From Deltaproteobacteria bacterium TL4 (GTDB lineage: Bacteria > SAR324 > NAC60-12), in NCBI GenBank assembly GCA_051382335.1, contig JBBCAX010000033.1, forward strand, positions 49,123-113,122: a stretch of DNA of 64,000 nucleotides. The letters run 5' to 3'. How positions within the stretch are numbered: the first letter of the stretch is position 1; every line of letters begins with the position of its first letter. A program made the position numbers and the translations under genes. The notes beneath the pieces are model-generated. The model did not search any database. It worked only from the letters and a program-made list of their open reading frames with translations, and was not told the DNA's origin. Below, one piece after another: positions 3,230 through 62,760 of this stretch.

Positions 3230-4669
3230 TTGCAAAAAGTCCAAACTATGAAATCTATTCTTGTTATCTCGCAATCATCATCGTCACAAGAAATACACCA
3301 GGCGTTATTTGCAAAGTACCGTATTGATGTAGCCTCTAGCTTTCAGGAATGTTTTCAAAAATATTCGCAAAATCGTTATGAATTTGCCTTCCTTGAATTA
3401 ACCCTGTTGCAAGAAAATTTTTCAGAATATACCCTCGACAACTGCAGAAAAGCACTTCAACCCCTCAGACGAGTTTTTCCAGCCTCCCAAATTATCGTGA
3501 TTTCCAGACAGGATCAGCTGAGAGACGCTGTGTTTGTCCTTAAAGCTGGTGCGAGTAATTACCTCACGACACCAATCAACGCTGATGAGCTTAAGCACGT
3601 CATTGAAAGCACCAATGAGGCGATTCGTATTAGGTCTGAATTGGATTATCTTCGGGATCAGTTTTGGCAAAGAGACTCGCTCCAAATCATCCGAACCAAT
3701 AATGCTGTCATGAAAAAAGTATTTCAGCAGATACGTTCTGTGGCTCCTACTAAAACAACGGTGTTATTGCTAGGAGAGACGGGAGTAGGGAAGGGTATAA
3801 TTGCTAAACTGCTTCATCATCACAGTGAACGTCAAAATAATCCGTTCATTCATGTCCATTGTGGTGCCATGCCTGACACTCTGCTCGAAAGTGAATTGTT
3901 TGGACACGAAAAAGGTGCGTTTACCGGGGCGGTGAAAAGAAAACTGGGGCGCTTTGAAATTGCAAAAGGGGGAACCATTTTTTTGGACGAAATCAACACC
4001 ATTACTCCTGCGGCACAAATTAAATTATTACAAGTTTTGCAGGATAAAATATTTCAACGTGTGGGGGGGGAACACTTTATTGAATCCGATATTCGTGCCA
4101 TTATCGCCTCTAACCAGGATTTGCGCAAAATGAGTGAAGCCGGAGAATTTCGGAGTGATTTATATTATCGCTTGAGTGTGTTTCCTATTGAAATTCCGCC
4201 TTTAAGGGAACGTCCTGAAGATATTCTGATTTTGGCCAATACGTTTCTTGACAAACTCAATCAACTCTATTTTAAAGAGATCTATGATTTCCATCCTCTG
4301 GTAATAGAAGCACTGCAGAAATACCTGTGGCCTGGTAATATTCGGGAATTGGAGAACCTCATGGAGCGGGCTTACATTTTAGAAACATCTTCTGTCTTAA
4401 CTCCTGAAAGCTTTCCTCAGGAATTGTTTAATTCAGATCTTCCTAAGGCTAAAGTGCTTTTGGATACCTCCTTGTCTTTGGCGGAAATGAGACAACTCAA
4501 CCTGGAGTACATCGAACGACAGTATCTGAAAGAACTGTTGGCCCGCCATCAAGGAAAGATCAATCATACCGCTGAAGCTGCCGGGATTAGCACCCGCCAA
4601 CTTCATAAATTACTCACAAAATACAAAATTCGTAAAGAAGAATTCAAAAATGTCACGTTCCATATATAG
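3230..4669 (+). CDS. sigma-54-dependent transcriptional activator (NtrC/Fis family) with atypical receiver
   Basis: It has an AAA+ sigma-54 interaction domain (GETGVGKGIIAKLLHH Walker A, ESELFGHEKGAFTGA GAFTGA motif) and a C-terminal Fis-type HTH. The N-terminal receiver-like domain lacks the acidic pocket and the phospho-Asp position (FLELTL where D is expected). Confidence 0.85.
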   Translation: MQKVQTMKSILVISQSSSSQEIHQALFAKYRIDVASSFQECFQKYSQNRYEFAFLELTLLQENFSEYTLDNCRKALQPLRRVFPASQIIVISRQDQLRDAVFVLKAGASNYLTTPINADELKHVIESTNEAIRIRSELDYLRDQFWQRDSLQIIRTNNAVMKKVFQQIRSVAPTKTTVLLLGETGVGKGIIAKLLHHHSERQNNPFIHVHCGAMPDTLLESELFGHEKGAFTGAVKRKLGRFEIAKGGTIFLDEINTITPAAQIKLLQVLQDKIFQRVGGEHFIESDIRAIIASNQDLRKMSEAGEFRSDLYYRLSVFPIEIPPLRERPEDILILANTFLDKLNQLYFKEIYDFHPLVIEALQKYLWPGNIRELENLMERAYILETSSVLTPESFPQELFNSDLPKAKVLLDTSLSLAEMRQLNLEYIERQYLKELLARHQGKINHTAEAAGISTRQLHKLLTKYKIRKEEFKNVTFHI

Positions 4670-5065
4670 TGGGAATTCCAAGTTCCGAATGGGCTTTACT
4701 GTAGTACTTATGAGTTCCGATTTTAGAATACCTTTCATTACTTTAACTAGCTCATCACCAGCAATACTTCTGCCATTTAAAATTTATGGGAGCGAAATTG
4801 CAAAATAACCCCCGCAATTACAGTATTTTTCAAATAACTCCTCATGCTAATCTTCCGAAAATCCTCTCTGTCTGTTTTATTATTTGAAATATTTGTCCTG
4901 AAATAGTGCCCACCTTGGCGACTTTCTATAAAAACAGAATCTACGGTTCTTTTTTAATTACATTAAAAATTAACTCATTCAATTAAATCAGCATGATAAA
5001 AGATGGCATATTAGTTGAGACATCATCAGTATATGATCATGTGAGTCATTCATTCTTTAACCCTA

Positions 5066-5347
5066 ATGATAGCTATGGAAACAGAAGTACGTCAAGAATC
5101 GGTTTTGGAAATTACAGGAATCATCATCCCTAATGATTGGGGGGCACAAAATGCGGTGACCTCCATTGTGATGTGTACTCCGGGCGAGAAGGAATACCTG
5201 ATTGAGCAAAATTCACAAGGACAAGAATTACTGGAATACATTCGCCGTATGAAGAGAGCAAAGGTTAAACTCAAAGGCAACCTGAAAAAAGATAAATATG
5301 GAAAAAACCTGGTGCAGGTGAGCAAATACAAAGTTCTGGAATGGTGA
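5066..5347 (+). CDS. hypothetical small protein
   Basis: 93-aa ORF, Lys-rich C-terminus. No homology recognised. Confidence 0.3.
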   Translation: MIAMETEVRQESVLEITGIIIPNDWGAQNAVTSIVMCTPGEKEYLIEQNSQGQELLEYIRRMKRAKVKLKGNLKKDKYGKNLVQVSKYKVLEW

Positions 5348-5523
5348 ATATTGGAGTTTTCGAACAATAGTTCTGCATGAAAGTAACGGGATCGTGTGGC
5401 TCGTGTTTACGGGATAAAACCCGATGTTTTAGGATATTAGCGTTTATCTGTGGCGTTCCCACGCAAGGCATGGGAACGATATAAAATTCCAGTTCAAACC
5501 CAGTCTATAGACGAAAGGCTGGA

Positions 5524-8500
5524 CTAGTACCGACCTGAAGGCAGGGAATGAAAACCTGGAACAAGGTCTGTATCATTGTTGTCGTTTTCTCCTGAATCCG
5601 CAGCATACGTCCAGGTATAGACCTCCCGATTTCCTGTCACATCAATTGTATTACCAAGAGCATCCACCACACCGGTTACGATAATGGTATTGGCTGGTCC
5701 TTTGGTAACAGCTACAGTCTGATCTGTGGTCGCAACCTCAGTTCCCGCAGTGTAAGCGTAGGTAATCGCCGCACCAGTAGCATTTCCTCCAGTCAACGGA
5801 GGCTCTGCAGCCGTTCCTGCTTTGATTAAGGCAATGGAGACTTTAACGTATTCTCCAGTAACCGCTGGGGTTTGAGTTGAATCGGCATCCGCAATATCGT
5901 TAGCCGCTCCTACAGTAATTGTTTTGATTTTATAACCGGAAGGAATTGGTGTAAAATTGGTTGGATTCGCAACCGAACCTATATCTGTGATCGTTGTCTC
6001 ATTGTTAGTTGTGTTGATCTCAAACGAATTCGCATCTGAATCCAGGCCAACCGCTTTATTTGTGGTAAAGAAGTAGACCTCTACCGTCAAGGTTGGATTA
6101 GCGGCTGTATAGGTATCACCAAAAATTCGCTTAAGATCCCCTTTTTTGATAAAATGGCGAGCTGTCACATTAGTCATCGCTGTAGTGGTCGTTCCCTTTG
6201 TGTCATCTTGTTGAAGATTTGCTGTCGTTACAACGAAATCTTTTAAGGAAATTCCCCCAAATCCATCCATCACCGGATTCACTCCGATGATTCTATTATT
6301 TTGACCTGCATCAGCGGTAGCGGTAATGGTCGTCGCACCATCTGAATCATAATCAACGGTCCCTACAAAATTTCTGGCCAAGGTTAGGGTTGCGCGTGTA
6401 CTTGAATTACAAACCACGGATCGGATCTTAAAGGTTGAACCATCTGCGCTGCTTGTAGTGCCGGGAGTTCCAGCCAAGGTTGCCGCACCTGTTGAACTCC
6501 CTGTATTATACGTGATGGCATAATTTGCGGGATTACAAATGGAAGTGGCATAATCATCGCCATACAAATCTACAGAGTTATTCATGGCTTCTGTATAGTT
6601 GACTACGACTGTGGCTGGGCTCAAAATCATTTCATCATCTGTCGCGAAGTCAGCTCCAGTTTCGGTGATCGTTATTGGCGCAGCATTTGTGGTTTCTGTT
6701 AAACGAGGTCCAACCTCATCGATCTTACCAGCTAATCCTGCACCATAGGCATTCAAATAGGTCCCATTATCACTACCGTTCAAAACAGTAGCACCACTCG
6801 CGTCATTAGCCACTGTGTTAGCTCCGGCGATATTATTAGTACCATCGTACAAGCTCACAGTAGGAGCCAAGTCCGCAACCGTTGTATTCGCCACCAGCGT
6901 TTCGCCCGTCGCGCTTGTTAACTGCGCTGATACATCATTTACATAAATACGAACCTTGGTTTTGGTGTCTGTTTCATAAGCATACGCAGTATTAACTCCA
7001 TTGTTTTGCAACTGCGTAAACCCGATGACTCCTGCCACTAACTTGGGATGATTCGCATTCACCGTTAAGCCCCCAGCCAACGCTAAACCACCAACAATTG
7101 TGGTTACATTCACGGGTTCTGTAAACGTAACTTCCACATAATCTTCAGTGGTACTTACTGTAACGGTTTGCGCTAAGGGAGGAATCCCATCTACCAGATA
7201 TCCGACCTTGTGAGTGGACGTTATCGTATTGCCATGAAGATCGGTGATTCCCGTTAGCTGAATTCCCAGTCCTGTTCTTACGTTGAAGACATTATCCAAT
7301 CCCAACGTAATAGCCTGATATTTGGATTTGGCTGTAGCTTCAGAGTCATTGTTTAAGTCAAGTCCGGGCCAACTACTGAATGAGGTAGCTGTTCCATAAT
7401 TGACACTGGTATTTCCAAGACCTGAAGCCATGTTTTTTCCATCAAGCGCTGTGATTGCTGGAACTTTGGTACCTGCGGCAGAAGCGGGATCAGCTCCATA
7501 ATAAAGAGTTGCCTCCGTACTTGTTAAACTGGTATTTTCAAAAGCGTTGTTCACCATCACCAACGTGATATTATCCGATTTTCCATCGTTATTGGCATCC
7601 ACATTCACTGTAGCTTTAGCAAGTGGTTCTGAGGTCTTAATCGTAATATTATACTTAGTGGACTGATCATTGGTACGGAATGAATCACGAGCGGCAGTTA
7701 AAGAGTCACTTCCTTGACTATTCGTGTTATCACTGTAGCTCTCTACAGAGCTGATATCCACTGTGTTGCCATCGGAATCCAAAGTCACTCTGGCAAATGG
7801 ATAGTTACGGGTGGCAGCCGTCAGATTCGCTGGTCCAATTCTCGGAGGTGTATTGTCTTTGACACGTACTGTTGTGGATTGGGTCCCTTCCAAACCATTG
7901 ATGTCAATAGGTCCGACTTTTACGTCCATCTGCATCAAGGTCCAACCGTCGCCGGAAGCATCGGTTGCATCTTCCAAGCTATAGGTTGCAAACGCGCCTT
8001 CTGTGTCATTATCTTCCAAACCCGCGTTTGTCGCATTATCGTCCCATGTATCCCAAAAATTAGTCCCAGTCCATGACATTTCGCTTGGAGGATCGTAGCT
8101 TAGTTTGGTTTCACCAATTTCCACAAAAGGACCAATGGTTCTTGTTGAAGATTCTTGTATTTCCAGCCCTTGTCCCCAGACACGGTATGCGTAAGCGCCA
8201 ACAACCGGTGTCCAATCAACATGAACTTTAACCGTTGGTTCCAACAGTGTCGCTGCTGCGGTATCTGCACTGCTGGCTACCACGGTTGGAGCGACAAAGG
8301 TCGGAGTTTCTGCCGCGATAGTGAAGTCTAGAATACCAGCATTAGCGACTGCGGGAGCACCAGAACACGTGAGACTCGTATCAAAACTCAGAGCGTCAAC
8401 GGGTTCTCCTGCCGTACCATTATCCTTTCCAGAGGGACACGTAAAAGCCCCATTCCCATCTAAATCAACCCAACCTTTGTAGGAGTTTCCTGCTTTATCC

Positions 8501-10059
8501 TTGATTAGAACCCCCTGAGTGTTAGTGGTTAAATCGATTTTGTATCGAAATCCAGCCTCTAAAGGCACTTGAGGAGTAATTACCACAGTATTGATGACGC
8601 CCGAAACTGCTTCAAAAGAAATTTTCGCAGACACCTCTTGTGGATTATCAAAATCGTCAGTGGTGTAATCACCCCCCGCAAAATCTGCTTTTTGAATCAC
8701 ATCTTTGAGGAATACGTTATCAATATACGGCATTAATGCTTCATTGAAACGTACTTTGATACTTGTCGGAGCGGTTGTCGTCATGAAACCATCGGTGCTG
8801 GCTGTATCCATTGTTCCATTGCTTGTTAAAACAGCCGTCACATAAGGCATGATCACGTCCTGGATCGCCGTTACTCTAGGTAGGAAAATCGCTCCTGCTT
8901 GTGCGGCTCCTGGGAATACTCCATTATTGAACATTCCTAAAGAATAATTTCTTCGAGGTTCAATCGCCGTGGCACTGTCATAGGTTTTGGTTTGATAGCC
9001 TGTGGCCGAAATACTGATAGCATTTATTTTATCCCATGTTCCATCACAACCCAGATCCGCGGCAACCAAACCTGTAAGGGTAAATCTTCCATTTTCATCT
9101 GTTGTTACCGTTATAGGTGGAACAGAAAAAGTGTTCATGATGACGGTATCCCCGTTCGCTGTTTTATCGGAAGACACATTTTTTTCTGGCGCATGAATCA
9201 CACAATTGTACTCGTTGACCAGGTTGGTTCCCGCCGTGACACCTACTGCGGCATCAACAGTTTCCAAATTAACAACCGCTCCCGCAATAGGTTGGGCTGT
9301 TTCCGCATCGACAATCACCCCTGTAAGCGTTGAGGAATAGTCTGGAATAATGAAGTCATAGTTATCGGTTCCAGCTTCAATGGGAATATCAGTTGTAAAA
9401 TCTGTGGTTGATCCCTCTGGGGATGAGATGGTTGGAAGTGTTTTAGCCACGGTTCCCACAACTGCGTTTCGGATCACCGCTGTAATGGCAGACACCCCCG
9501 TTCCTATTTTTACAACGATGGTATAAGTCCCTCTAATTTTATCGGACCCACTCCAATAACCGTTGCCATCGCCATCATACCAACGAGAAGGTTCAAGGTT
9601 ACAGAAGAAATAGATCCCTAACGCATTGGTCGTTGCGGTTCGTATCGCACCTGAAGACGCAAGCGATACAATGGCTCCTTCGATGGAGTTTCCGCTTTGA
9701 TCCACAACAGAACCCTGAATGTCGAATCCTGTCGCGGCGGTACTGGTCTCAGCGCAAATTGCTTCAACCCCTGCAAAGCCGTCTTTTCCATCTTTTCCAT
9801 CTGCTCCATTTACTCCCGCAGCGCCTGCCGCACCTGCTGCACCATTGGTTCCAGGTGCTCCATCCACGCCATTCGTTCCTGCTGCCCCATTAGCTCCCGC
9901 AGCGCCTATTTCACCTGGAGCACCTTTCATTCCAGGCTTTCCATCGTCCCCTTTCAACGACTCACAGCCACCCCAAGCCAAGGCCAGAATAGCAACAAGT
10001 ACCATCATTGATAAACTCAATGAACAAAACCTCGTTGATTTCTTCTTATTCCCTATCAT
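5524..10059 (-). CDS. giant secreted surface protein with N-terminal collagen-like (Gly-X-Y) repeats and Thr/Ser-rich Ig-like/carboxypeptidase-regulatory-like region
   Basis: 1511-aa ORF with a signal peptide (MIGNKKKSTRFCSLSLSMMVLVAILALAWGG). It carries about 20 consecutive GXY triplets (GKPGMKGAPGEIGAAGANGAAGTNG...GKDGKDGFAG). The rest is a long T/S/N/G/A-rich low-complexity region. Confidence 0.8.
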   Translation of the reverse strand: MIGNKKKSTRFCSLSLSMMVLVAILALAWGGCESLKGDDGKPGMKGAPGEIGAAGANGAAGTNGVDGAPGTNGAAGAAGAAGVNGADGKDGKDGFAGVEAICAETSTAATGFDIQGSVVDQSGNSIEGAIVSLASSGAIRTATTNALGIYFFCNLEPSRWYDGDGNGYWSGSDKIRGTYTIVVKIGTGVSAITAVIRNAVVGTVAKTLPTISSPEGSTTDFTTDIPIEAGTDNYDFIIPDYSSTLTGVIVDAETAQPIAGAVVNLETVDAAVGVTAGTNLVNEYNCVIHAPEKNVSSDKTANGDTVIMNTFSVPPITVTTDENGRFTLTGLVAADLGCDGTWDKINAISISATGYQTKTYDSATAIEPRRNYSLGMFNNGVFPGAAQAGAIFLPRVTAIQDVIMPYVTAVLTSNGTMDTASTDGFMTTTAPTSIKVRFNEALMPYIDNVFLKDVIQKADFAGGDYTTDDFDNPQEVSAKISFEAVSGVINTVVITPQVPLEAGFRYKIDLTTNTQGVLIKDKAGNSYKGWVDLDGNGAFTCPSGKDNGTAGEPVDALSFDTSLTCSGAPAVANAGILDFTIAAETPTFVAPTVVASSADTAAATLLEPTVKVHVDWTPVVGAYAYRVWGQGLEIQESSTRTIGPFVEIGETKLSYDPPSEMSWTGTNFWDTWDDNATNAGLEDNDTEGAFATYSLEDATDASGDGWTLMQMDVKVGPIDINGLEGTQSTTVRVKDNTPPRIGPANLTAATRNYPFARVTLDSDGNTVDISSVESYSDNTNSQGSDSLTAARDSFRTNDQSTKYNITIKTSEPLAKATVNVDANNDGKSDNITLVMVNNAFENTSLTSTEATLYYGADPASAAGTKVPAITALDGKNMASGLGNTSVNYGTATSFSSWPGLDLNNDSEATAKSKYQAITLGLDNVFNVRTGLGIQLTGITDLHGNTITSTHKVGYLVDGIPPLAQTVTVSTTEDYVEVTFTEPVNVTTIVGGLALAGGLTVNANHPKLVAGVIGFTQLQNNGVNTAYAYETDTKTKVRIYVNDVSAQLTSATGETLVANTTVADLAPTVSLYDGTNNIAGANTVANDASGATVLNGSDNGTYLNAYGAGLAGKIDEVGPRLTETTNAAPITITETGADFATDDEMILSPATVVVNYTEAMNNSVDLYGDDYATSICNPANYAITYNTGSSTGAATLAGTPGTTSSADGSTFKIRSVVCNSSTRATLTLARNFVGTVDYDSDGATTITATADAGQNNRIIGVNPVMDGFGGISLKDFVVTTANLQQDDTKGTTTTAMTNVTARHFIKKGDLKRIFGDTYTAANPTLTVEVYFFTTNKAVGLDSDANSFEINTTNNETTITDIGSVANPTNFTPIPSGYKIKTITVGAANDIADADSTQTPAVTGEYVKVSIALIKAGTAAEPPLTGGNATGAAITYAYTAGTEVATTDQTVAVTKGPANTIIVTGVVDALGNTIDVTGNREVYTWTYAADSGENDNNDTDLVPGFHSLPSGRY

Positions 10060-10376
10060 TTCTTTTCTCCAAGATATGTTTTCTCCAACCGTTTCAACGG
10101 ATGAAAATTAACGTTAACGGATACAGATGATTCGACACATGACCCTAGTATTTTTTGAGCAATAAAAAACATTCATCAGAATGTCAAATTCTTTTTCTAA
10201 AACAAAATCAAAAATAACTTGAAACCCTCATTGATTCTCAATACTAACAATAAAAGGCCATTGTCTAGCTAAAAATACGAACAAAAAAATCCTTGTCTTT
10301 GGAGTTTTTTCCTCGTTAATAGAATTAGGGTATGGATTTTACCCACATTCTCACGGCATGTAATTTAGTGTTTCAG

Positions 10377-10453
10377 AAAAGTATTTTGGGCTGGGAGCGC
10401 AGGCGTCCCGCCTGCTTTTGCGGGCAGGATGCCCGTATTCCCAGGAAAAACTT
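10377..10453. repeat. palindromic dispersed repeat element, copy A (~75 bp)
   Basis: Imperfect palindrome with GGCGTCCCGCCTGCTTTTGCGGGCAGGATGCC at its core. It shares about 85% identity with the copies at 10481-10554 and 20314-20386. Confidence 0.8.
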
Positions 10454-10480
10454 ATCTGAAAGTCTATAGTTGTCCAGATA

Positions 10481-10554
10481 AATTTCTGTTGGGAACGCAG
10501 GCGTCCCGCCTGCTTTTGCGGGCAAGATGCCTGCGTTCCCAGGACAAAACTTTT
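10481..10554. repeat. palindromic dispersed repeat element, copy B
   Basis: GGGAACGCAGGC / GCCTGCGTTCCC perfect 12-bp outer arms flank the inner CCCGC-loop-GCGGG hairpin. This is the best-preserved copy. Confidence 0.85.
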
Positions 10555-10597
10555 CTGGAGAAGTAGACACACGATCCCTAGCAACGAGATTCATGGA

Positions 10598-11546
10598 ATG
10601 TGTACAATTCGTCTGGGTTTATTAGGGCTGATTTTTGTAATCAGTCTTGTTGCCACCATTTTCGCTCAAGAGGAACCGGTAAGCGAAGGTAAAGGGGAAG
10701 GTCAAATTTGTGCCCTTTTCAAGCCAGGTGTCGAATGTCCAGGTGAAGCGGGTCTTTCACAGGCAGAAGCCGTTGCTTTGGCATCCCTCATGCGAAACGC
10801 TGAATTTGGGGTAGGTGAAGTCCTGGGCGCTTCGGATGAAGAGGGGGGGGGGAAGTGGGGACGATAAAGGCAAAAAAGGAGGAGCGGGAACCACTACCGG
10901 CAGTGTTGGAACCAACTTTGGTTATTCAGAAAGCGTCCAACTCTTTATGTTTCCGTTCTCCTATTCGCTAACGCAGACAATCCAAATTTCCGCTAATTTT
11001 CCATTCATTCGCGTGGAAAACGTCGAAGGAATGGGGAATCCTTCTGTATCTATGAAAGTATTTTATTCCTTCTTTGGTTTTTCAGCGTTGACTTCCGTGA
11101 CTTCCAAACTTCCCGTTGGTGATGAAGAACTCGGCGCGCGTCAAGACACCAATGATTATGTCTTTAGTCAAACGCTCCTTAGGGACATGGGCTTTTCCCG
11201 AATTTTTGGTAATTATACTTATATGTACATTCCTCAAGGCGAAAGCGACATTGATGTTGGCGATGTTTCTATGGGGATGTTGGGGCTGGATATGCCCTTG
11301 CCCTTGGGAGACAAGATTAATGTTTATGGTGCTCTTTTTTCAAGCCAGAACTTTGCTGATAAAAACGGGGATGGAAATCGGATTTGGGATACCCAGCAGA
11401 TTACGATGGATACCACGTTCGGTTTGGTATTTCGCGACATTAACTTAAGGACAGGGATTACAGTTCCTGTTTATACCTATTCCAAGCAAATAGAACACTC
11501 GGATCGTAGTCCTCTTTTTGACGTTGGATTTCGCTTTTCATTGTAA
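10598..11546 (+). pseudogene. outer-membrane beta-barrel protein gene interrupted by a frameshift at a G10 homopolymer (possibly phase-variable)
   Basis: ORF 10598-10867 encodes a signal peptide (MCTIRLGLLGLIFVISLVATIFAQ) and runs into ...EEGGGKWGR*. ORF 10815-11546 is in the +1 frame; it continues GGSGDDKGKK... and ends in a beta-barrel-like C-terminus (...FDVGFRFSL). The two frames meet at GGGGGGGGGG (10843-10852). Confidence 0.55.
10843..10852. repeat. poly-G homopolymeric tract (10 G)
   Basis: Counted directly from the sequence: gaaGAGGGGGGGGGGAAGTGGGG. Confidence 0.9.
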
Positions 11547-11615: not shown

Positions 11616-14600
11616 ATGAAGATAAAAGCGTACACGATTTTGCAATTCTTGTTCTTGTTATTCCTGAGTGCACTCTTCGTTTCAAGTTGTGGAGAAGACA
11701 AAAAAGAGAGGCCCAATGATGGGGCTGTCGACAGCCGTATTACTTTTGAACTCCGTTGGCCTGATACTTCCAGTAGTTCAGCAACTGCGTCGCAATACCG
11801 GATTTTTCCCATTCCTTCTAACGTGGATACCGTTCGGATGGTGGTATTAAACGCGGCAGGAGAGATAGCCCGGAGCGGTGCTGGAGATCTTTTGGAAAAA
11901 GATTTTGATTCAAATACAGGTGTAGGTTTTGTGGAGGGCGTTCCCGCTGGTGAGGGCTACACAGTACGTTTTGTCGCCTTTGACTCTCAATCTTTTCCAA
12001 GATATCGTGCCGCTCGCGAAGAGGTGACGGTTGTCGCAAACACCACCACCAAGCTGGGAACGATTGATATGGATGTGGCCCACGTGAACTCTTCCGCGGT
12101 AGTTACTAAAACTGTACAACCCGGAGAGCAATGTCCCTTTGGTGGAGTGCAAATTGAGATGGGGATTGATAGGGATGGCAGTGGTACTCTGGATGAAAAG
12201 GAAGTTACCAAATTCGAGGTGGTCTGTAATGGAATCAGAGGGCCAGTCGGAGCCAGTGGCGCAATTGGAGTCTCTACCCTGCTCAATATTGAAGAGATCC
12301 TCACAGACGATACTGAATGCGGAATACTGCACGGTAAAAAAATTGAGTATGGAAAAGACGATAATAACAATGGTATTCTGGAACCCGTGGAAGTGGATAC
12401 CACTTCCTACATTTGTAACGCAACGGCTCCCGGGCTGAGCATCAATAGAAGAAGTTTGTTTACCAACGAACTGGGAGCTTCAGACGGTTTTACGCTTCGC
12501 CTCAATTCAAAACCCACCAATGATGTGATCGTCAAGATCGAAAATTCCAATAGTAGCGAGGTAAAAGTATTTCCGGATCAAGTGGTTGTGACTCCAGATA
12601 ACTGGCAGGACAGTCAACCGGTAACGGTTACTGGCGTCAGAAATACAACAACCACCCAGGACCAAATCGTGCAATTGACTCTGAGCTTTGAGAGTGAAGA
12701 TGTGGTTTACAAGAAACTTGACCCGCTCAACGTCTCAGTCACTAATGTTCATATTGAACCTCCCGCAAAAGAATTTTCTTCCCACAATGAGCTGGTTTCA
12801 ACGCTGGCCGGTTCTTTCACGGAGGATGACATTAAATTATTTGATGGAATCGTCAGGGGAGTGAATAACGGATACTACGACAACACCCTATATTTGTTTG
12901 CCACTGATTCCAACAATCACATTGTTTACAGAATTAACATCAATACCCATGTTATTGAAGTTTATGTGGGTAAAAAAGGATTTTCAGGAAATGGGGTTGG
13001 GAGCGCTACCAATTCCCGGTTTAAAAACCCAAGAGGAATCACCATCGATAGCAGTACCGGGTTTTTATATGTGGTGGACTCCGGAAACGGAAGGATTATC
13101 AGGATTGATACCGATACTCCCACCGCCGGTACGACTGCCCTTGTAAATATGTCTGGTTCTCTGAATGAGCCTTGGGGCATCACGCTTAGGCAAGGCACCC
13201 TTAATATTACTGAAATTGGTGCTCATCGTGTGAGGACACTTTCCACAGCCGGAGGATCTCTTGGAGTCCTTGCAGGGGATGCTGTTGGTTATGCCGATGG
13301 TTCTGGAGGATCAGCCCGTTTTAACAAACCCAAGGGAATCCACTTTGATGGAACTAACTTTTTTGTGGCGGACTCTGGAAATCATGCTATCCGACAAATT
13401 ACTCTAGCTGGCGTTGTCACTACCGTTGCCGGAATAGGAACGACTGCGGGTGCCAAAGATGGTGACCGTGCTACAGCTCTGTTTGACACCCCTGTCGGAA
13501 TCACTGGTGATAGTACCTACCTTTATGTTTCCGCACAAGGGCAATATCCGCTGCGTAAAATCGAGAAAGGCAAAGGCGCAACTTCCACGTTAGTCCAATT
13601 TCAAGGCAGTTTAGATGGCGGCTCAAGTATCGCGAGGTTTAATGATCCATCGGCAATTTTGTGTGACGATAATACTCTGTATATCAGTACCTCCAATAGA
13701 TTTCGCAAGCTGGATCTCATTCAGGGAACAATCATCACCATGATTGGAAGATCCTCCACCAATGGTTCCGGTACCTCAGCCCGTTTTGACCGGCCTGTTA
13801 ACCTTGTCGCTGGTCCCAATGGCAAGATTATATACATTACGGACTATTACAATCACACGATCCGAACCATGAACCTCACCTCAAATGCGGTAGGTACCTT
13901 GGCTGGGGTTGCCGGAAAGGCAAGTACTACAGAGGCGGCTGTGGCACCTGGAAATCTCTTTTTTCCATGGGGCCTTACGTCAGATGGTACGTATCTTTAT
14001 GTGACTGAACCCAAAAGTCATACGATTCGCAGAGTCAGCATTGATACCGGTGTCACAAAAACCATTGGTGGTACCGCTTTTACCCACGGATCCTCTGAGG
14101 GAATTGGGACCACAGCCTTATTTAATACACCTTATGGCATTGCCACCGATCTGAAAAACCTGTATGTTGCCGATTCGGAAAACCACGTGATCCGGAAAAT
14201 GGATCTCCAAACGTTTCGTGTGAGTATCTTTGCTGGGGATCTCGGCACACCAGGATCATCTGGTGGCGTTTCGTCCGCCCAATTCAATCAACCTAAGGCT
14301 CTCACTAGCGATGGCGTCAACCTCTATGTCATCGATCAAAATGGAATCCGAATAGTGGAAATGTCATCAGGCAAAGTGAGTACAATTTCTGGAACTTCTG
14401 GTTTGAAGAACAGTCTTGGTCTTTCCTCAGACGGAATCAATCTTTATGTGAGTGATACTGATCATCATCAAGTTCAAAAAGTGGTGATTAAAACAGGGGC
14501 TATTGCTATTTTGGCAGGCAATAATAGTGAGGCCCTGAATACGGACACGGTTTGGGATTTAACCTATACTCCTATGATTACAACGCCCGCACGGTTTCAT

Positions 14601-14711
14601 ACACCAGCGGGGATTCTCTTTGGTGATCTTTTCGGAACAGATAAAGAAGAAATTTTTCTGGTTGATGCCGTTGCGGGAACACTTCGGAAAATGGCTCAGC
14701 AAAACAACTAA
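11616..14711 (+). CDS. NHL-repeat beta-propeller lipoprotein
   Basis: It has a lipoprotein signal with lipobox (LFVSSC). It has multiple NHL repeats (YVVDSGNGRIIRID, VADSGNHAIRQI, YVTEPKSHTIRRV, YVADSENHVIRKMD, YVSDTDHHQVQKV). 1031 aa. Confidence 0.85.
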   Translation: MKIKAYTILQFLFLLFLSALFVSSCGEDKKERPNDGAVDSRITFELRWPDTSSSSATASQYRIFPIPSNVDTVRMVVLNAAGEIARSGAGDLLEKDFDSNTGVGFVEGVPAGEGYTVRFVAFDSQSFPRYRAAREEVTVVANTTTKLGTIDMDVAHVNSSAVVTKTVQPGEQCPFGGVQIEMGIDRDGSGTLDEKEVTKFEVVCNGIRGPVGASGAIGVSTLLNIEEILTDDTECGILHGKKIEYGKDDNNNGILEPVEVDTTSYICNATAPGLSINRRSLFTNELGASDGFTLRLNSKPTNDVIVKIENSNSSEVKVFPDQVVVTPDNWQDSQPVTVTGVRNTTTTQDQIVQLTLSFESEDVVYKKLDPLNVSVTNVHIEPPAKEFSSHNELVSTLAGSFTEDDIKLFDGIVRGVNNGYYDNTLYLFATDSNNHIVYRININTHVIEVYVGKKGFSGNGVGSATNSRFKNPRGITIDSSTGFLYVVDSGNGRIIRIDTDTPTAGTTALVNMSGSLNEPWGITLRQGTLNITEIGAHRVRTLSTAGGSLGVLAGDAVGYADGSGGSARFNKPKGIHFDGTNFFVADSGNHAIRQITLAGVVTTVAGIGTTAGAKDGDRATALFDTPVGITGDSTYLYVSAQGQYPLRKIEKGKGATSTLVQFQGSLDGGSSIARFNDPSAILCDDNTLYISTSNRFRKLDLIQGTIITMIGRSSTNGSGTSARFDRPVNLVAGPNGKIIYITDYYNHTIRTMNLTSNAVGTLAGVAGKASTTEAAVAPGNLFFPWGLTSDGTYLYVTEPKSHTIRRVSIDTGVTKTIGGTAFTHGSSEGIGTTALFNTPYGIATDLKNLYVADSENHVIRKMDLQTFRVSIFAGDLGTPGSSGGVSSAQFNQPKALTSDGVNLYVIDQNGIRIVEMSSGKVSTISGTSGLKNSLGLSSDGINLYVSDTDHHQVQKVVIKTGAIAILAGNNSEALNTDTVWDLTYTPMITTPARFHTPAGILFGDLFGTDKEEIFLVDAVAGTLRKMAQQNN

Positions 14712-14858
14712 GAGACGTTTTAAAACGTCTAGGCCAAAACGTTTAGCTTTTGTTTTTTATTCCAATTGAGTATTCCTCTCCATTCACTTCTCGAAAGTGT
14801 GAAAAATAGGGCATGCTGATAGGCTTTAGGCGATGATCGGCATGTCTGGCTTTTAGTC

Positions 14859-17339
14859 TTGATACATCCTTCTTTCTTTCCCTTATCTATGAACATGACT
14901 CCTCTTGATTCGTTTTCATTTCGTAATATTCGTCGCTCTCCCTTATTAATTCCCGGTCTGCTCTTTATTACGGTGAATTTATGGTATGATTACACATTTT
15001 ATCATGTGAATACCTCCAAGCTATTGTTTGTTTGTGGTGGTGTCACTTTATTATTTCTGCTGAGCGATATCCTTGCCTTTAGAAAATATAATAAAGGCGC
15101 AAAGGACAAAAAACACTGGTTGGTGATGGGAATCGTCGCTTTCCCTCTTTTGGGGATGCTGCCCGGATTCATGTTGCATGGAGGAAAGTTCAACTATTAT
15201 TTGCCGATTGAGGTTTCCAGCACACTTATCTTAATTTTGTGGGTTGGCTATTTATTCAAACGAACTCAATCAAGTTTGGATCTCGAAGTTTTTGTGTTTG
15301 CACTCAGCCTCACTTCGATTTATTGTTCCCTCTGGGCTTTCTTGGAAAAAACGGGATATCATCCAAAATATACTCAAGCCATTGATCGTGTTGCCGCAAC
15401 TCATGGGAATACTAATTATTTTTCTGGATTTTTAATCCTCTTACTTCCTTTGTTTTTGGCACGGGGCCTTCCCCTTTATGAACCATCGAAAGGCAACTGT
15501 TTTAGGCAGCGCTTGGTTTATAGCAAATTCCAGGGGTACTATTTGTTGACTTTTTGCTTAGGAGTCCTGTCGTTGTATTGGGCTTCAAGCCGAGCAGCGA
15601 TTGCTGGTTTTGGAATGAGTCTCCTGGTCTTTATTTTTCTGTACTTGCATTTTTTCTTCGCTTCAGGTGTTAAAAAAACCTTAGTCCTGACAGGAATTAT
15701 TATTTTGATCATCGGAGCCGGTTTTATTGGAGTGGTTTTCCTTGAAAAAGGGCTACTTTTCTCAAAAATTAATGAACTGACGATGACTTCGGAGTGGGAA
15801 GAACGCTTTGTTTCCTGGAGACCGGCTATTGCCTCCATTCGGGAAGCTCCGTGGTTTGGGTATGGTCCCGGAAGTTCCTACAATTTATTTTTCCAATTTG
15901 TAGAACCGATGACGCGAATACGGCTGGACTTCAGGCGGTTTAATCATGTCCATCTGGAACTGCTTGAAATCATGCAGGAAGGTGGCGTTTTAAGTTTAGC
16001 GGGATTTCTGTTTTTATGGGGAATTGTTTACTGGAAGTTACTAAAAATCATCTTTAATTCCCAGGGGCATCGTTTTTTTAAATTGATGGCCATTGGCGTC
16101 TTTTGTGGGACACTGGCTCATCATGGTCAAAGTTTTTTTTCAGTGGCTTCCCGGATGATGGTCGTCAAATTGCCCTTATATAGCATGATCGGTTTAAGTT
16201 TTATCCTGGATTATTTGCAAAAATCTCAGGACATTGCTGAAAAAAAAGACGATCTCTCCCAAGCCATTACTTGGAAAAAGCATGTATTCGCTAACCTTGT
16301 TCCTACGCTTTGTCTCCTTACAATTTGTTGGGGACTTTTAATCCCTTGGGCTCAAGCCATGTATCATTACACTGAAGTTCATGCGCAAGCGCGGAATTTG
16401 CGGGATCTAACGTTTAAGCTGGAAAAGCTGATGAAAACGCAACCTAATATTTACGGATTGCAAAAATTGGCCAAATTGCAGTTTCAAACAAAACGTCCTG
16501 ATCTGGATAAAATCTGGGTTATGGCGGATGCGTTGATTCCTCATTATGATATGATGGATTATTTCAGGGCGCTGTATTTTTATGAACAAGGGGCCCTGGA
16601 GACCGCTTATCGCTTAGCAAAAGAAGCACAGGCTCGCGATATTTATAATGACGATATTATCGAAATGGTCGCGCATTTTGCTGCCATAAAAAAAGATGGA
16701 CCTGAATTTTCGCGGCAGTTGGAATTGATGATCGAGAAAATACTCCTTTATGAGGATATTCTCAGGGATCATGATCCAGCTAAGGTGACCTCCACTCTGG
16801 TTGAGATGGCTCCTGACTCCTTTGAAATGATCCAAAAAGGCGATTCAGTCCAAATGACGTGGAGGCAGGATTTGATTGAGAGTCTCATGCTTGGGGTGGG
16901 AAGTCGCGAACCCCAATCCATTGCTGGTTATGAAGAAAGAAAACGGTTTCGACAATTATTAAAACAACAACTGGGAAGATCCCATTTTTTTCAGCTGACT
17001 TATCGTCAAGAGTTCAGTCCCGCAGAAAAGGCGGGTTATCAAAATAATTGGATTAAACTCAATGAATTGGATGAGGATTATGCTTCAAAGTCAAAGCAGA
17101 ATGAGCTCAGGCATCGTTACGAAATAGCGCAAGTCCCTTCAGAAAATATAAAACAGCTCAAGGAACAATACCTCAAACAAACGAAAATTTTTGAAGAACA
17201 GTATCAAGAAAAGCGAAAATCCTATAGGGAGCTCCTCATGAAAAACACGTATTGGGAAGAATTTCAAACACATATAAGTATTCTGAAAAAAATTCTGCTG
17301 ACGATTGATGGCTGGGTTAAGATTGACCCTCGGGAATAA
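14859..17339 (+). CDS. O-antigen ligase (Wzy_C) domain membrane protein with a C-terminal soluble helical/TPR-like domain; candidate O-oligosaccharyltransferase
   Basis: It has about 10 predicted TM helices. The Wzy_C signature is [24 protein letters not shown]...[24 protein letters not shown]. About 370 aa of charged helical C-terminal extension follows. Confidence 0.7.
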
Positions 17340-17367
17340 TTTTTTAATGGTGTTTTCAGAGCATTGT

Positions 17368-19203
17368 ATGATGACAGAAATAAAAAACCCGGTATCTCCC
17401 AAAACCATATTGAGGAACGTGTTTGGTTATTCGGAGTTCCGGGGAAAGCAGGAAGAGATCATTCATCATCTCCTTTGCGGAAAAGACGCTTTGGTCCTCA
17501 TGCCGACAGGAGGAGGAAAGTCCCTATGTTATCAGATTCCTTCAATGATTCGACCTGGAACAGGAATCGTTGTTTCGCCTTTAATTGCTTTGATGCAAGA
17601 CCAAGTGAGTGCAATGTATCAACTTGGAGTCAGAGCCGCGTATATCAATTCCTCACTTTCTTATGCTCAGGTTTGCGCGGTTGAAAACCGGATGCGTGCC
17701 GGAGAACTCGACCTCTTATATGTGGCGCCTGAACGTTTGTTAACATCAAGGTTCATCCGCTTATTGGAATCTAACCCTATTGCCTTATTTGCCATTGACG
17801 AAGCTCATTGTGTCTCGCAATGGGGACATGATTTTCGTCCTGAGTACATTCAGCTTACCCTGTTAAAAGAACGTTTTCCCCATGTTCCCCGCATCGCCTT
17901 AACCGCTACAGCGGATGAAATAACCCGGAAGGAAATTGTGGAAAAATTGGGGCTGGAACAAGCAGTCCCCTTTATTTCAAGTTTTGATCGGCCCAACATT
18001 TTTTATCGGGTGGTTCTTAAAGACAGCGCCAAACTGCAACTTTTGAATTTTATAAAAGGAGAACATGAGGGCGATGCGGGAATTGTTTATTGTTTGAGTC
18101 GGAATAAGGTGGAAGCGACAGCGGAGTGGCTTGCGGGAAAAGGCTACAAAGCCTACCCGTATCATGCGGGCTTAAGCGCTCAAGTTCGTTATGAAAATCA
18201 ACAACGTTTTTTACAGGAAGACGGGATTATCATTGTGGCGACGATTGCTTTTGGAATGGGGATTGATAAACCCGATGTGAGATTTGTCGCTCACTTGGAT
18301 ATTCCCAAAAGCATTGAAGGATACTATCAAGAAACCGGAAGAGCTGGTCGAGATGGCGAAAAAGCCGATGCTTGGATGGCTTATAGCTTAAATGATGTGC
18401 TCATGCTCAAAAGAATGCTGGCGGAATCTGAGGCCGAAGAAAAATATAAACAAATCGAACAAGGTAAATTAGAGGCCATGCTAGGTTTTTGTGAAACGAT
18501 CTTATGTCGGAGACAAGTATTACTCAAATATTTTGGCGAAAATCTTGCGAAACCTTGCGGCCATTGTGACACCTGTTTGGATTTGCCAGAGACTTGGGAG
18601 GGCACTCTTGCTGCCCAAAAAGCAATGTCCTGCGTGTTTCACACCCAACAGCGTTTTGGCGCGAATCATTTGATTGATGTCTTGATAGGAAAAGAGGATG
18701 AGCGCATTCGAAAATGGGGACATCATCAAACCTCAACCTATGGGATAGGAAAAGAGCTTTCTTTCGGAGAATGGAAGTCTGTTTATCGGCAATTGGTTGC
18801 CGCGGATCTTCTGAGTTTGGATCTGGAAGGGCATGGAGGCTTAAGGTTAACCTCAAAATCCCGACCTGTGCTAAAAGGAGAGCAGAAAATTTTCTTTCGT
18901 AAAGATCCTAATCCTTCTAAAAAAGAAAGCAAACCTTTGAAGCAAAGCACCAAAGCCTTGCTGTTAGGACCTCCTGAATTGAATGAGCTTTGGACTGTGT
19001 TGAGGGAATTACGTAACGAAATTGCAAAAGACCAGGGTGTTCCCGCGTATGTGATTTTTCACAACTCAACGTTACAGGAGATGGCGGAGATCCACCCACA
19101 AACTCTAGCGCAGTTAGGACGTATTTCAGGGGTTGGAGTGACCAAACTGAAACGCTATGGTGAGCGATTTTTAGAAGTGTTGAAGAATCATCCAAAAGCT
19201 TGA
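17368..19203 (+). CDS. recQ: ATP-dependent DNA helicase RecQ
   Basis: It has [14 protein letters not shown], the Walker [15 protein letters not shown], the DEAH box ([16 protein letters not shown]), an RQC zinc-binding Cys cluster (CGHCDTC) and a C-terminal HRDC. Start set at the ATG aligned with the E. coli RecQ N-terminus. Confidence 0.9.
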
Positions 19204-32130: not shown

Positions 32131-35100
32131 TTAGGAAAGAGTGTGGATGCTGTTTTTTTGTTGGCAATGTTCCATAAATTTTTTAAAACAGAGATTGCTT
32201 TTTAAAGCTTCTTCGGAGTGTGCGATGTTGTAAAAAAAGACAGAGCTTCCCACGACGACAAGTTTCTTTTTCGCTCGTGTGATCACCACGTTAAAACGGT
32301 TGGGATTGTTAAGAAATTCCCCTTCAATCTGATCCAAATCTGATACGGTAAAGCCAAACAAAATCACGTCTCGTTCCGCGCCTTGGATCCGCTCAACCGT
32401 ATCAATCAAAGGTCTCTGGAAATGATGCTCCTCCATCAGGGGTTGAAGTTTTTCAAGGATTGCATTGTTTTGTGCCCGATGGGGGGTGATGATTGCGATT
32501 TGCTCAGGAGATACCTCATATTCCATGATTAAGGTTTTCGTAAACTCTACCAGCAGTTCCATTTCCGGAACACATTTTTGCCCAGACCCCCTGTGATCCA
32601 GTAAAACCAAACTCACCGGTTGAGCCGGGTTTAAAATGGGACCGTAGGGGTCCGTCAGTTGAAATCGGGATAGTTTCAAACGTGAATTCTGATTAGAGAG
32701 GTGAGGATACAAGGCTCCCTCATACCAGGTCTGACTTGGAAACTCACAGAGTTCTTTATTCATCCGATAAGTCACATTTAAGCGTGATTGGAGGGGCGCA
32801 TCATAGTGTTTCATCAAATGGGCCAGGATGGAGTCTTTTAGATACACTTGCTCTTTTTCTGCGTCATATCTTCCTATTACAATCGGTGGTAATTGATTCA
32901 CATCTCCAAGGAACAGAAAATTACCTTTACCGTACAGCAAACTCAATAACGCTTGAGGGACTAGAACCTGTGAGGCTTCATCAAAAATAACCCAGTCAAA
33001 CACAGGGGGGAAATCTCCGTCTTTTCCTTCAAATAACTGATAAAGTCCAAAACCTGTTGCTCCCAAAATGGCGTAAGGGTGTTCTGCTAATTCGTTGACA
33101 TCGTTCAGTAGTTGTACGGTTCTGTCACCGAACGGCTGAGGGGAATCTTCACTCCAACGTCCCCATTTAAAGCAAGGCGCGGGAAATTCCCGCAGCGAAT
33201 GTTGATTGAGGAGTTGAAGAACCTTTCGCAGAACCTGGTCAATAGCCTGATGAGTAAGAGCACTGACCACGATACGCATGGGGCGATTGTTTTGCTGGGC
33301 ATGCAGAACCAACGCAATTAAAATCCATCCCAAAAGGTGTGTTTTCCCAGTTCCAGGAGGTCCTTCAATCAAACTCAAACGATATTGAAAGGCTTGTTTT
33401 AAGGCTTGTTGTTGCGTCTCATTGAGTCCTGAAATCTGACTAAATCTCTTCAACCATTGTTCTGCCCAGGTTAAAGCGTCTTCATCCTGCTTGAAAGACC
33501 ATCCTCCAGATAATAAATGAAACAAGGGGTGATTGTGATCCTCTGACAAAACGATTTGTACTCCATGAAATAATTTATTCGTATTCCAATCCGTTAGATC
33601 TTCTTCCAGGGAATAACCCGCGTTTTTATTTAAGTTTATTTTTCCTTGACGAGACCGTAAGCAAATCTGATTTTGACTTCGATCATAATTTTCAAGAATG
33701 ACGGGTATTCCCTTTTGAAGATCACTCAAGGAAAGAGGCGCGAGTTTGAGAAAATCCCCTTCTCGAAACTTGGAACTCCTGTTGGGGCCCTTGATCCTGA
33801 AGAGGTACAAAAACCGTCCTTCCTCATCAAGGACCATTTTCTCGAACTCTAATGGTCCGAGAGAACGGAACCGTTCAACACGTTCTTGAAATGAAAGTTT
33901 CTGTAATTGCAAGATATCGTCTTCCCGTAAACGTTTTTCATTCTCAATAAAATTCAGGTAGGCGTCTTTGAGTCCCCTCGTTGGATCAAGGTTCGGAGAA
34001 GAATCCTGCTGATTCCATTCACTGCGCAGATGTGGCGATAACCACTTCCAGACGGCCAACAGCACCTGGAGGCGTTGTTTCAACGTTACTTCCATTGCCT
34101 GACGTGTTTTCTCGTCAGGATCGTTCGCTATTGAGCCATTCGACCATGAGTCTTGATGGAACAGGCTCTCCGGAGGAAGTTGATTGAGCGAAATTCCTGT
34201 AACTCGACTCAAGGCGTACAGGGTCATTTCCCCTGGAATCGGGAAGTCAAAATGGGAAAAAATGAGGTGTGAAAGAGAGGTACTGTGCTGGCGTTGAGGA
34301 TTCCACAGGAAAGACAACTCGGAATCCACAAAAATGTTTTGGAACGATAACCAATCGCTTTCTCTAAAATAGAAAAGATGAGGGGTCTGTCCCTCAGATC
34401 TTCCCTTGTCCCACACCTTGATCAATTGAGGAATAAAGGTTTTTCGAAAGTGAGAAGACTGTTCTTCATCGAAAAACAACCAGGTTTGATTCTGGAGAAC
34501 CGTTCCCGTATTATCGGTCACACACCACCCCAAACCACAACTTTTTCTGGAAAGAGGGTCTTCTAAAGTCTGAATGAAAAGGCTCAACGACAGATTGGCG
34601 GGAAAGAGACGAGTTACCGGTTCCCTCAAATAAAATTGCCCGGTTTGTAACGATTTTGTTTTTGCCATCAACCGTTCACGCTGGTTGGGTGACAAGCCAT
34701 CATCAATGGAGTCAGAGGTTTGTTCCTTTGAAAAATAGGACTCCACTTGCGTCAAGGAATGCAAGTGCTGAAGTCTGATTTTTTCCAAAATACCTGCGGT
34801 GATTCCTGGCAAAAACAGAATCTCTTGCTCCCCTAAGGAGTGATGATAACAATAATCGAACCAAGGACATGACGTACAAGGAACCTCCAAACGATAGGGC
34901 GCTTTTTGCGGAAGTTGCAACAGCGTATTCCGAATGTTTTCCCAAAGCGCGGGGAATGAGGCCCAAAAGGGGGCAAGCTCGAATTCATGGAGGATCGCTT
35001 CACTTCCAGACTCTTGGGAAGGGGTCATTAAAAACCCTGTAGAGGAAATTTGCAGGGGTTCGGAAAAGACCCCTCGCGCGTTGAGTTCTCGCATGAGAAA

Positions 35101-41200: not shown

Positions 41201-41763
41201 ACTGGGGTTTGAAGAATTTTGTATTGTATCACTTTTATGCGGCTCAGGCTGGGACTTATACCATTGAAACTACCAGTTCCACCGATACTGTTCTGATTCT
41301 CTATGATGCCTCAGGTACTAAAAAGATTGAAGATGACAATAGCGGTACCGACAAAAACGCAAAAATAACCTATACGGTGCAATCTTCTGACTCAGGTAGT
41401 TGGTATTTTGTCCAGGTTAAAGGCGCGAATGACAGTACTTTTGGTCTTTTCGAGATCCAGGTATCAGGACCTGAACTTTCAGCTCAGATAACCACTTTGC
41501 CGCAAACGTGGGATACCACTACTGCCGATAAAGGAATTGTCCTTTCCTGGTATGATCAGGCTTATCATAAGCTTTATATTGCCGCTCCTGATGAAAGCGT
41601 TTCTTCCGGTTCTATTACGATCAGCCATTTTGGTGCTATTGGAAAAATTGTCCGAGGGCAATTCCCCAAAGAGGGTTCTGATGGCGTCATGCGAGCGGTA
41701 GACGACAGTGGGGCAACCGTTGAGATTCAAAAAGGTTATTTCAACATTCTAAGAAGCGAGTAG
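38290..41763 (+). CDS. surface lipoprotein with ~12 carboxypeptidase-regulatory-like (CarboxypepD_reg/Cna-B-like) repeats, a (GGTTS)n linker and a C-terminal PPC (pre-peptidase C-terminal) domain
   Basis: It has a lipobox (LWFVAC). There are about 12 repeated modules of roughly 90 aa (G.I.G.VKD..T..PL.GV.V...G....T...G.F.L), each ending in Y.V.FSKEGY-type strands. The C-terminal domain has PPC-like features ([17 protein letters not shown]...WYFVQVKG). Confidence 0.7.
38984..39141 (+). repeat. 15-bp in-frame tandem repeat (~10 units) encoding (GGTTS)n
   Basis: The units GGTACCACTTCAGGG / GGGACTACTTCAGGA repeat head-to-tail. The minus-strand ORF here translating to (PPEVV)n is antisense noise. 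Confidence 0.85.
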
Positions 41764-41767
41764 AGAC

Positions 41768-42439: not shown

Positions 42440-42486
42440 GTTTACTTTGTTGAGGTTTTTGACCCTATTTTTAAGAAGGTGTAAAA

Positions 42487-43974: not shown

Positions 43975-43985
43975 ATAAGATCTAT

Positions 43986-44041
43986 GGGTTCAGAGTTCAA
44001 CGCTAAGATCGGTGAGCTCTGAATCTTGAACCCCTGAACCC
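43986..44041. terminator. imperfect hairpin with reiterated CTGAACC motifs downstream of the 38290-43974 gene string
   Basis: GGGTTCAGAGTTCAA pairs with TTGAACCCCTGAACCC (one bulge). There is no U tract, so it is only a possible terminator or protein-binding element. Confidence 0.3.
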
Positions 44042-44062
44042 TTAACCTCTGAACCATCACTC

Positions 44063-62752: not shown

Positions 62753-62760
62753 GTTTTAAG

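Follow-up and report, generated by a model that had tools for sequence, protein, structure and literature searches.

Described Wzy_C enzymes

Members of the WaaL/PglL superfamily are inner-membrane enzymes that transfer a ready-made glycan, on the periplasmic side, from undecaprenyl-pyrophosphate to an acceptor. The Pfam Wzy_C family also takes in polymerases, which differ from strain to strain and are encoded within glycan clusters. Coding of the O-antigen ligase gene waaL beside LPS-core or O-antigen genes is typical of enterics and not universal. Glycoengineers now rely on the protein O-oligosaccharyltransferases (O-OTases) PglL, PglS and TfpM; TfpM and TfpO have neither a PglL_A nor a Wzy_C_2 domain.

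In the O-OTase PglL of Neisseria, residues R224, R298 and H349 have been equated with R215, R288 and H338 of E. coli WaaL and their roles described (PMC3643930), and the presence of PglL_A (PF15864) and Wzy_C_2 (PF11846) alongside Wzy_C is the published marker of PglL and PglS (PMC3643930, PMC12645811). C-terminal TPR motifs have been reported in PglL and in WsfB, a predicted S-layer protein O-OTase of Paenibacillus alvei for which a large surface protein is the proposed acceptor (PMC2943079). General O-OTases are typically unlinked to their substrates (PMC12645811).

Here we analyzed a Wzy_C gene in a stretch of 64,000 nucleotides (the window) from Deltaproteobacteria bacterium TL4, and found its product to be an uncharacterised variant of this known enzyme class. 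An initial annotation had interpreted it as an O-OTase that glycosylates Ser/Thr-rich surface proteins encoded around it, which is plausible in outline and partly supported by the results below. Our own preference, held tentatively and at somewhat less than an even chance, is for a broad protein O-OTase with an undecaprenyl-pyrophosphate-linked glycan donor and a TPR-like domain that docks protein acceptors.

The gene and its probable transcription unit

The open frame of the initial annotation was confirmed over all 826 codons, and the following features delimit it:

14713..14730, plus strand, palindromic hairpin directly after the stop codon of the upstream NHL-repeat gene, a weak terminator-like element
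14859..17339, plus strand, whole open reading frame as first noted, with a TTG start
17347..19203, plus strand, recQ

Translation most likely begins not at the TTG codon but at ATG 14889 (816 aa) or ATG 14895 (814 aa). The shorter form equals NCBI protein P0001, entered there as 'O-antigen ligase family protein [Deltaproteobacteria bacterium TL4]'. The reading frame is preceded by intergenic DNA of about 150 nt. Since the likely start of recQ lies only 8-30 nt past the stop codon of the Wzy_C gene, the two genes in the window are probably read as one transcript. Scanning for sigma-54 promoters gave a single match, not above chance, and scans for sigma-70 promoters and terminators returned site counts about equal to those of shuffled sequence.

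A WaaL-like membrane core with an invariant Arg/Arg/His set

Residues are numbered on the 816-aa form, and the core comprises the following features:

14889..16226, plus strand, 12-helix WaaL-like membrane core, aa 1-446
15549..16010, plus strand, Pfam Wzy_C match, aa 221-374, including a large periplasmic loop (aa ~287-356)
15591..15593, plus strand, Arg235, invariant in the family, aligned with PglL R224
15804..15806, plus strand, Arg306, invariant in the family, aligned with PglL R298
15951..15953, plus strand, His355, within an invariant N-H-x-H-x-E motif, aligned with PglL H349

The Wzy_C signature was recovered as Pfam PF04932 well above chance (50.8 bits against a cut-off of 31.7, E 2.1e-13), and all 13 family members matched the same profile. 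No NCBIfam profile exceeded its threshold (IctB reached 16.8 bits against a cut-off of 366). An AlphaFold model (pLDDT 82.4, pTM 0.79), for which an alignment of 13 homologues (A1) was the input, shows 12 helices folded as in WaaL and a periplasmic loop that is itself helical, in line with the Wzy_C/WaaL-fold superfamily, and the 12-helix core ends near aa 446. In the family profile alignments R235, R306 and H355 coincide with the catalytic Arg/Arg/His of WaaL and PglL; because all three are also invariant, the protein is predicted from its sequence to be a catalytically intact, active enzyme.

WaaL was the sole significant structural match to the predicted fold. The Cupriavidus metallidurans enzyme (PDB 7TPG/7TPJ) has the same Wzy_C motif, with Arg/Arg/His at equivalent positions. 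These resemblances, together with the NCBI name, speak for the main rival to an O-OTase, namely that the protein is the lineage's WaaL-like ligase of O-antigen (or another glycan) to lipid A-core, its TPR-like domain contacting the LPS-transport or chain-length machinery. We consider this possible but somewhat unlikely. Identity to WaaL is only 11-15%, and the typical WaaL has about 400 aa, 12 transmembrane helices and no extra domain: the 7TPG chain (403 residues) is without a periplasmic TPR-type domain, whereas the protein studied here, at 814-816 aa, has one helix more and a C-terminal domain of 325 aa.

Against the family profile, WaaL 7TPG scored only 18.6 bits and the 610-aa chain 9RMK, labelled 'Oligosaccharyltransferase', 18.4 bits, both marginal; a single-sequence search of the PDB gave noise only. 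We infer that 9RMK is PglL, since its residue numbering fits R224/R298/H349. With scores so nearly equal, sequence does not separate WaaL from PglL function. None of the 13 members gave a match to PglL_A or Wzy_C_2, even at E <= 10. Their absence is in keeping with a ligase and excludes membership of PglL/PglS, while O-OTase function stays compatible with it, since TfpO and TfpM are likewise without these domains. Both the missing domains and a similarity to PglL no greater than that to WaaL count against an O-OTase.

An additional helix and a TPR-like C-terminal domain

Behind the core we distinguished three further features:

16227..16361, plus strand, Lys/Asp-rich linker (aa 447-457) and 13th membrane helix (aa 458 to ~491)
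16362..17336, plus strand, family-specific C-terminal domain, aa 492-816 (325 aa)
16398..16751, plus strand, about four TPR-like helical repeats, aa 504-621

The soluble C-terminal extension of ~370 aa described in the initial annotation is real, but it opens with a membrane helix before the 325-aa domain is reached. The linker is short, charged and of low pLDDT, and is probably cytoplasmic. The AlphaFold model continues with a long 13th helix (aa 458-500), whose residues W481, P486 and W487 are fully or almost fully conserved in the family, and then with the folded domain, where a small sheet and a helical bundle complete the structure past the TPR-like repeats. Nine helices precede the catalytic periplasmic loop and four follow it. 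A count of these 13 helices from the 12-TM, N-in/C-in architecture of WaaL would put both the C-terminal domain and the catalytic loop on the periplasmic side of the membrane. We infer this membrane topology, as we do the donor and the acceptor. Across the 13 members the C-terminal domain drew no Pfam match, not even to the TPR families, and its TPR likeness is one of fold only.

Several described proteins resemble this architecture. PglL likewise has a Wzy_C core with Arg/Arg/His, is longer than WaaL and is encoded away from LPS genes; its C-terminal periplasmic region carries a reported TPR motif (PMC2943079) and is unrelated in sequence to the domain described here, and PglL and PglS differ from our protein by their PglL_A and Wzy_C_2 domains. 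WsfB has the same order of a Wzy_C core and a C-terminal TPR-type domain (PMC2943079), a likeness of architecture that rests on published descriptions and on TPR recognition at fold level. The wsfB gene lies inside an S-layer glycan cluster with glycosyltransferases and its target, whereas the gene in the window has no such cluster around it.

By analogy with these enzymes, a periplasmic TPR-like domain points with moderate strength to a protein acceptor or a protein partner. If the enzyme is an O-OTase, it would take a ready-made glycan from undecaprenyl-pyrophosphate on the periplasmic side and transfer it onto an acceptor, with the C-terminal domain docking either protein acceptors or a partner protein, and its specificity would be broad and of a housekeeping type. 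The Ser/Thr/Ala-rich linkers of surface lipoproteins, such as those encoded nearby, may then be among its substrates, but not owing to adjacency. LPS-assembly or polysaccharide-export proteins could just as well be the partners that a TPR-like domain docks, and this counts against the O-OTase reading.

A small family centered on SAR324-type bacteria

A full-length search of 5.8 billion proteins returned only 13 relatives. When 1.84 billion cluster representatives were searched with a C-terminal-domain profile, 118 matched, nearly all of them proteins of ~700-820 aa with the domain at about aa 480-800, behind a Wzy_C core; the shorter ones may be fragments. Because nearly all matches share length and match position, the domain appears confined to the Wzy_C-core architecture of one rare family, referred to below as Wzy_C-long. 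Scanning species-representative genomes yielded 21 loci, those with a taxonomic label belonging to SAR324, Candidatus Lambdaproteobacteria, Deltaproteobacteria, Pseudomonadota, Desulfobulbia and Spirochaetia. The family is thus small and distinct and is centered on SAR324-type bacteria.

A search with a profile of the membrane core alone reached beyond the family to Wzy_C proteins that are 720-750 aa long and have canonical TPR repeats (E 1e-13 to 1e-7); JGI calls one of them 'O-antigen ligase/TPR repeat protein'. As these are its closest outside relatives, we regard the protein from the window as a divergent offshoot of a wider Wzy_C-TPR class that is itself uncharacterised. In three of them (P0129, P0130 and P0135, 'O-antigen ligase/TPR repeat') the Wzy_C core is followed by C-terminal helical repeats as in our protein, with 22-28% identity over part of the core. 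Their TPRs are canonical and recognised by Pfam, whereas the domain described here is not and carries the extra sheet and helical bundle. We found no functional studies of strain TL4, of a SAR324 O-antigen ligase or of Wzy_C-TPR proteins in the literature, and no experimental work on the Wzy_C-long family or the wider Wzy_C-TPR class.

The closest relative sampled is P0002 (40% identity, locus L008). Strain TL4 itself carries two paralogues, the copy in the window and the 545-aa P0003, and another family genome carries a tandem pair of Wzy_C-long genes; such duplication argues against the lineage's O-antigen ligase. In a neighbor-joining tree the protein from the window pairs with P0002, P0003 is their outgroup, and all three stand apart from the mainstream SAR324 clade. 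Two metagenome scans gave no further members of the TL4 lineage.

Giant lipoproteins and other genes in the window

The following genes of the window bear on the acceptor:

842-1591, kdsB (CMP-Kdo synthetase), the only LPS gene in the window
5524..10059, minus strand, 1511-aa collagen-repeat lipoprotein, candidate neighbor or substrate (Pfam collagen E 8.7e-9)
11616..14711, plus strand, 1031-aa NHL-repeat lipoprotein, immediately upstream of the Wzy_C gene
38290-41763, 1157-aa lipoprotein with seven CarboxypepD_reg domains and a (TSGGT)x11 linker

The claim that no LPS-core genes are near holds for about 13 kb to either side of the gene but stops at kdsB, which lies 13 kb away and shows that the organism makes Kdo-containing LPS, a point in favor of a ligase. 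Apart from this distant gene, the linkage to LPS-core or O-antigen genes known for WaaL was not found. No initiating transferase, glycosyltransferase or flippase gene lies near the Wzy_C gene in the window, and the absence of glycan-assembly genes there counts against an O-OTase. No pilin gene was identified among the annotated ORFs of the window, and the arrangement known for TfpO/PilO and TfpM, whose genes lie beside their pilin substrate and are co-oriented with it, is not seen.

Three giant Ser/Thr-rich proteins with long low-complexity tracts had been described as flanking the gene and were taken to be its substrates. All three proteins are present, but the 1511-aa and NHL proteins are without long low-complexity tracts: their S+T content is 19-20%, with a bias toward Ser/Thr/Ala/Gly, and in the 1511-aa protein the collagen repeat is short and a lipoprotein signal is likely. 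Searching for homologues with the C-terminal 500 aa of the 1511-aa protein returned none, probably owing to an overload of the word filter by its biased composition. The third, noted as a (GGTTS)n lipoprotein, lies 21 kb away. Giant lipoproteins (n=4) occupy 16.3 kb of the window; with 25% of the window encoding them, nearness to one is weak evidence.

Substrate linkage as in TfpO, PglS and TfpM would make the protein an O-glycosyltransferase devoted to the giant lipoproteins encoded next to it, chiefly the 1511-aa protein. The neighbors are indeed Ser/Thr/Ala-rich lipoproteins, and in L008 an orthologue of the 1511-aa protein is encoded directly upstream of P0002, despite an inversion and gene gain or loss between the two genomes. 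This orthologue aligns with the 1511-aa protein to the very C-terminus (44% identity), with a common ...NREVYTWTY...PGFHSL..RY end. The position of the window copy and P0002 apart from the mainstream SAR324 clade would also be compatible with a specialised duplicate. The genes nonetheless belong to separate transcription units: the 1511-aa gene of the window lies on the strand opposite to the Wzy_C gene, with a 243-aa ORF and the NHL gene in between, and in L008 a terminator-like hairpin with a T-run follows the orthologue. The NHL gene is not found in L008, most family members have no giant neighbor, and the share of the window given to giant lipoproteins again weighs against a pair. Downstream of the Wzy_C gene, L008 has an RNase H-like gene and recQ (71-73% identity). 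The adjacency in L008 and in the window is real. As it is seen in two genomes only, both of which keep recQ beside the gene, inherited gene order fits it as well as a functional link does; the neighborhood in the window looks inherited and not functional, and we judge a dedicated enzyme-substrate pair improbable.

Genomic neighborhood in relatives

Sixteen of the 21 species genomes, and further metagenome contigs, share a conserved block of RNase T/MshE, Wzy_C-long, FliP and FliQ. One side of the Wzy_C gene carries MurJ, signal peptidase, DUF218, a cyclase-like protein, an MshE-type ATPase and RNase T; the other carries FliP and FliQ and then convergent N_methyl pseudopilin-like genes and a lytic transglycosylase. 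No giant surface protein is encoded in this block in these 16 genomes, so adjacency to giant proteins is not a family trait. Among all loci examined, a giant Ser/Thr-rich surface protein adjoins the gene only in the TL4 lineage. The gene-neighborhood argument by which the initial annotation had assigned substrates is not supported by these data.

An LPS-core cluster around the gene in relatives, which the initial annotation had named among the findings that would speak against it, occurs at no locus examined, nor does an O-antigen or EPS cluster beside a Wzy_C-long gene. The genes of two outgroup Wzy_C-TPR proteins also lie among housekeeping genes, without an LPS or O-antigen cluster. In favor of a WaaL-like ligase, a single conserved housekeeping position across SAR324 is what a core envelope function would lead one to expect; against it, at the loci examined the gene is never beside LPS-core or O-antigen genes.

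A Wzy-type polymerase, or another processor of lipid-linked glycans for exopolysaccharide or an envelope polymer, would use the TPR-like domain as a scaffold to export machinery or as a link to the pilus and flagellar genes that neighbor it in SAR324. Inclusion of polymerases in Pfam Wzy_C agrees with this, as does the gene order shared with the MshE ATPase, pseudopilin genes and fliPQ and kept among relatives. TPR domains are also common in polysaccharide export scaffolds according to a reference cited in PMC2943079. Polymerases are expected in variable clusters with Wzx and Wzz/PCP, whereas the family loci are conserved housekeeping neighborhoods in which no Wzx, Wzz or glycosyltransferase gene adjoins the family gene at any locus. 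The Arg/Arg/His set also fits the chemistry of a ligase or an O-OTase. On balance we find a polymerase or another role of this kind quite unlikely.

A broad O-OTase fits the conserved housekeeping position across SAR324, because general O-OTases are typically unlinked to their substrates (PMC12645811). Protein O-glycosylation would then reach a globally abundant, mostly uncultured marine phylum, and acceptor recognition may be modular by way of the TPR-like domain, which would be of interest to glycoengineers. If the protein is instead the lineage's O-antigen ligase, it would be an unremarkable envelope enzyme with an accessory domain still to be explained; under either reading gene neighborhood cannot assign the substrate. 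A further conjecture, which we hold to be unlikely, is that the family constitutes an unrecognised fifth O-OTase class beside PglL, PglS, TfpO and TfpM, with built-in TPR-like acceptor docking and a general O-glycosylation role across SAR324, the TL4 duplicate being specialised for giant collagen-repeat lipoproteins.

Other family members have varied neighbors, among them PBP1, a TMEM260-like GT-C enzyme with an MtrC-like cytochrome, a tandem duplicate, FlaA, EF-P with EpmA, or acetyl-CoA hydrolase. We considered a pilin O-OTase role for the SAR324 members, given their MshE ATPase and N_methyl genes, and rejected it: the two N_methyl genes are convergent and lie 1.3-2.6 kb away beyond fliPQ, not in a pilin-then-OTase order, and the arrangement is absent from the window. 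A link to flagellin glycosylation through fliPQ, and through FlaA in one spirochaete-like genome, was likewise set aside, because the neighbors differ among lineages and because known flagellin glycosylation does not, to our knowledge, use Wzy_C enzymes.

Gene block around the Wzy_C gene

In SAR324-type genomes the long Wzy_C gene is part of a conserved, recurrent gene block, which we describe from one related locus (L006:1-17200) and which has equivalents in loci L001, L002, L011-L021 and L025-L030. Its parts are arranged as follows:

First side of the Wzy_C gene: MurJ, S26 peptidase, DUF218, a cyclase-like 566-aa protein, MshE-type ATPase and RNase T, in that order
Centre: the Wzy_C gene, then FliP and FliQ
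After FliQ: a 175-aa protein, then two N_methyl pseudopilin-like genes, then a lytic transglycosylase

In the stretches of SAR324-type genomes that carry this block, fliP and fliQ have no further flagellar export genes beside them.

Other loci of family members

In L017, which comes from one MAG, the family member is flanked by a TMEM260-like gene and a cytochrome gene (locus coordinates 3347-5524 and 8428-11286). Directly before it is encoded a 725-aa TMEM260-like (DUF2723) homologue of a GT-C protein O-mannosyltransferase, so that two putative protein-glycosylating enzymes are adjacent in this locus, and after it an MtrC-like multihaem outer-membrane cytochrome. The long Wzy_C gene is duplicated in tandem (794 and 787 aa) in L022:7410-12361, a pair carried by a complete 1.6-Mb MAG chromosome. 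A FlaA flagellar sheath gene, divergently oriented, adjoins the family member of L023, a locus with the label Spirochaetia. One further member, P0105 (1393 aa), is a protein annotated in a mussel genome assembly (Potamilus streckersoni); it probably reflects bacterial contamination or a mis-fused gene model.

Other genes of the window

Giant lipoproteins are unusually abundant in the window, where they take up about 25% of the bases. The following genes were listed besides the 1511-aa and NHL lipoprotein genes:

842-1591, -: kdsB (CMP-Kdo synthetase)
10815-11546, +: 243-aa ORF (putative gene) with a GTG start and a Gly/Lys-rich N-terminus, between the 1511-aa and NHL genes
32131-37989, -: 1952-aa protein, N-terminal DEAD/ResIII helicase and C-terminal AAA_11/AAA_12 (Upf1-like) helicase
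within 38290-45376, +: 1157-aa lipoprotein that has a (TSGGT)x11 linker besides its seven CarboxypepD_reg domains, then three ORFs of 223, 495 and 437 aa in the same direction
within 57575-63957, -: 1725-aa lipoprotein, downstream of the gene for an OmpA/Calx-beta protein

The three ORFs have no Pfam match, and together with the preceding lipoprotein gene they may form a surface-structure operon. The only Pfam match of the 1725-aa lipoprotein is one CarboxypepD_reg domain. The putative 243-aa gene has no Pfam match, and no counterpart of it occurs in L008, the locus of the closest Wzy_C homologue. The 64-kb window contains no LPS gene other than kdsB, whose presence indicates that the organism makes Kdo-containing LPS. 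The combination of two helicases in one 1952-aa protein is an unusual architecture.
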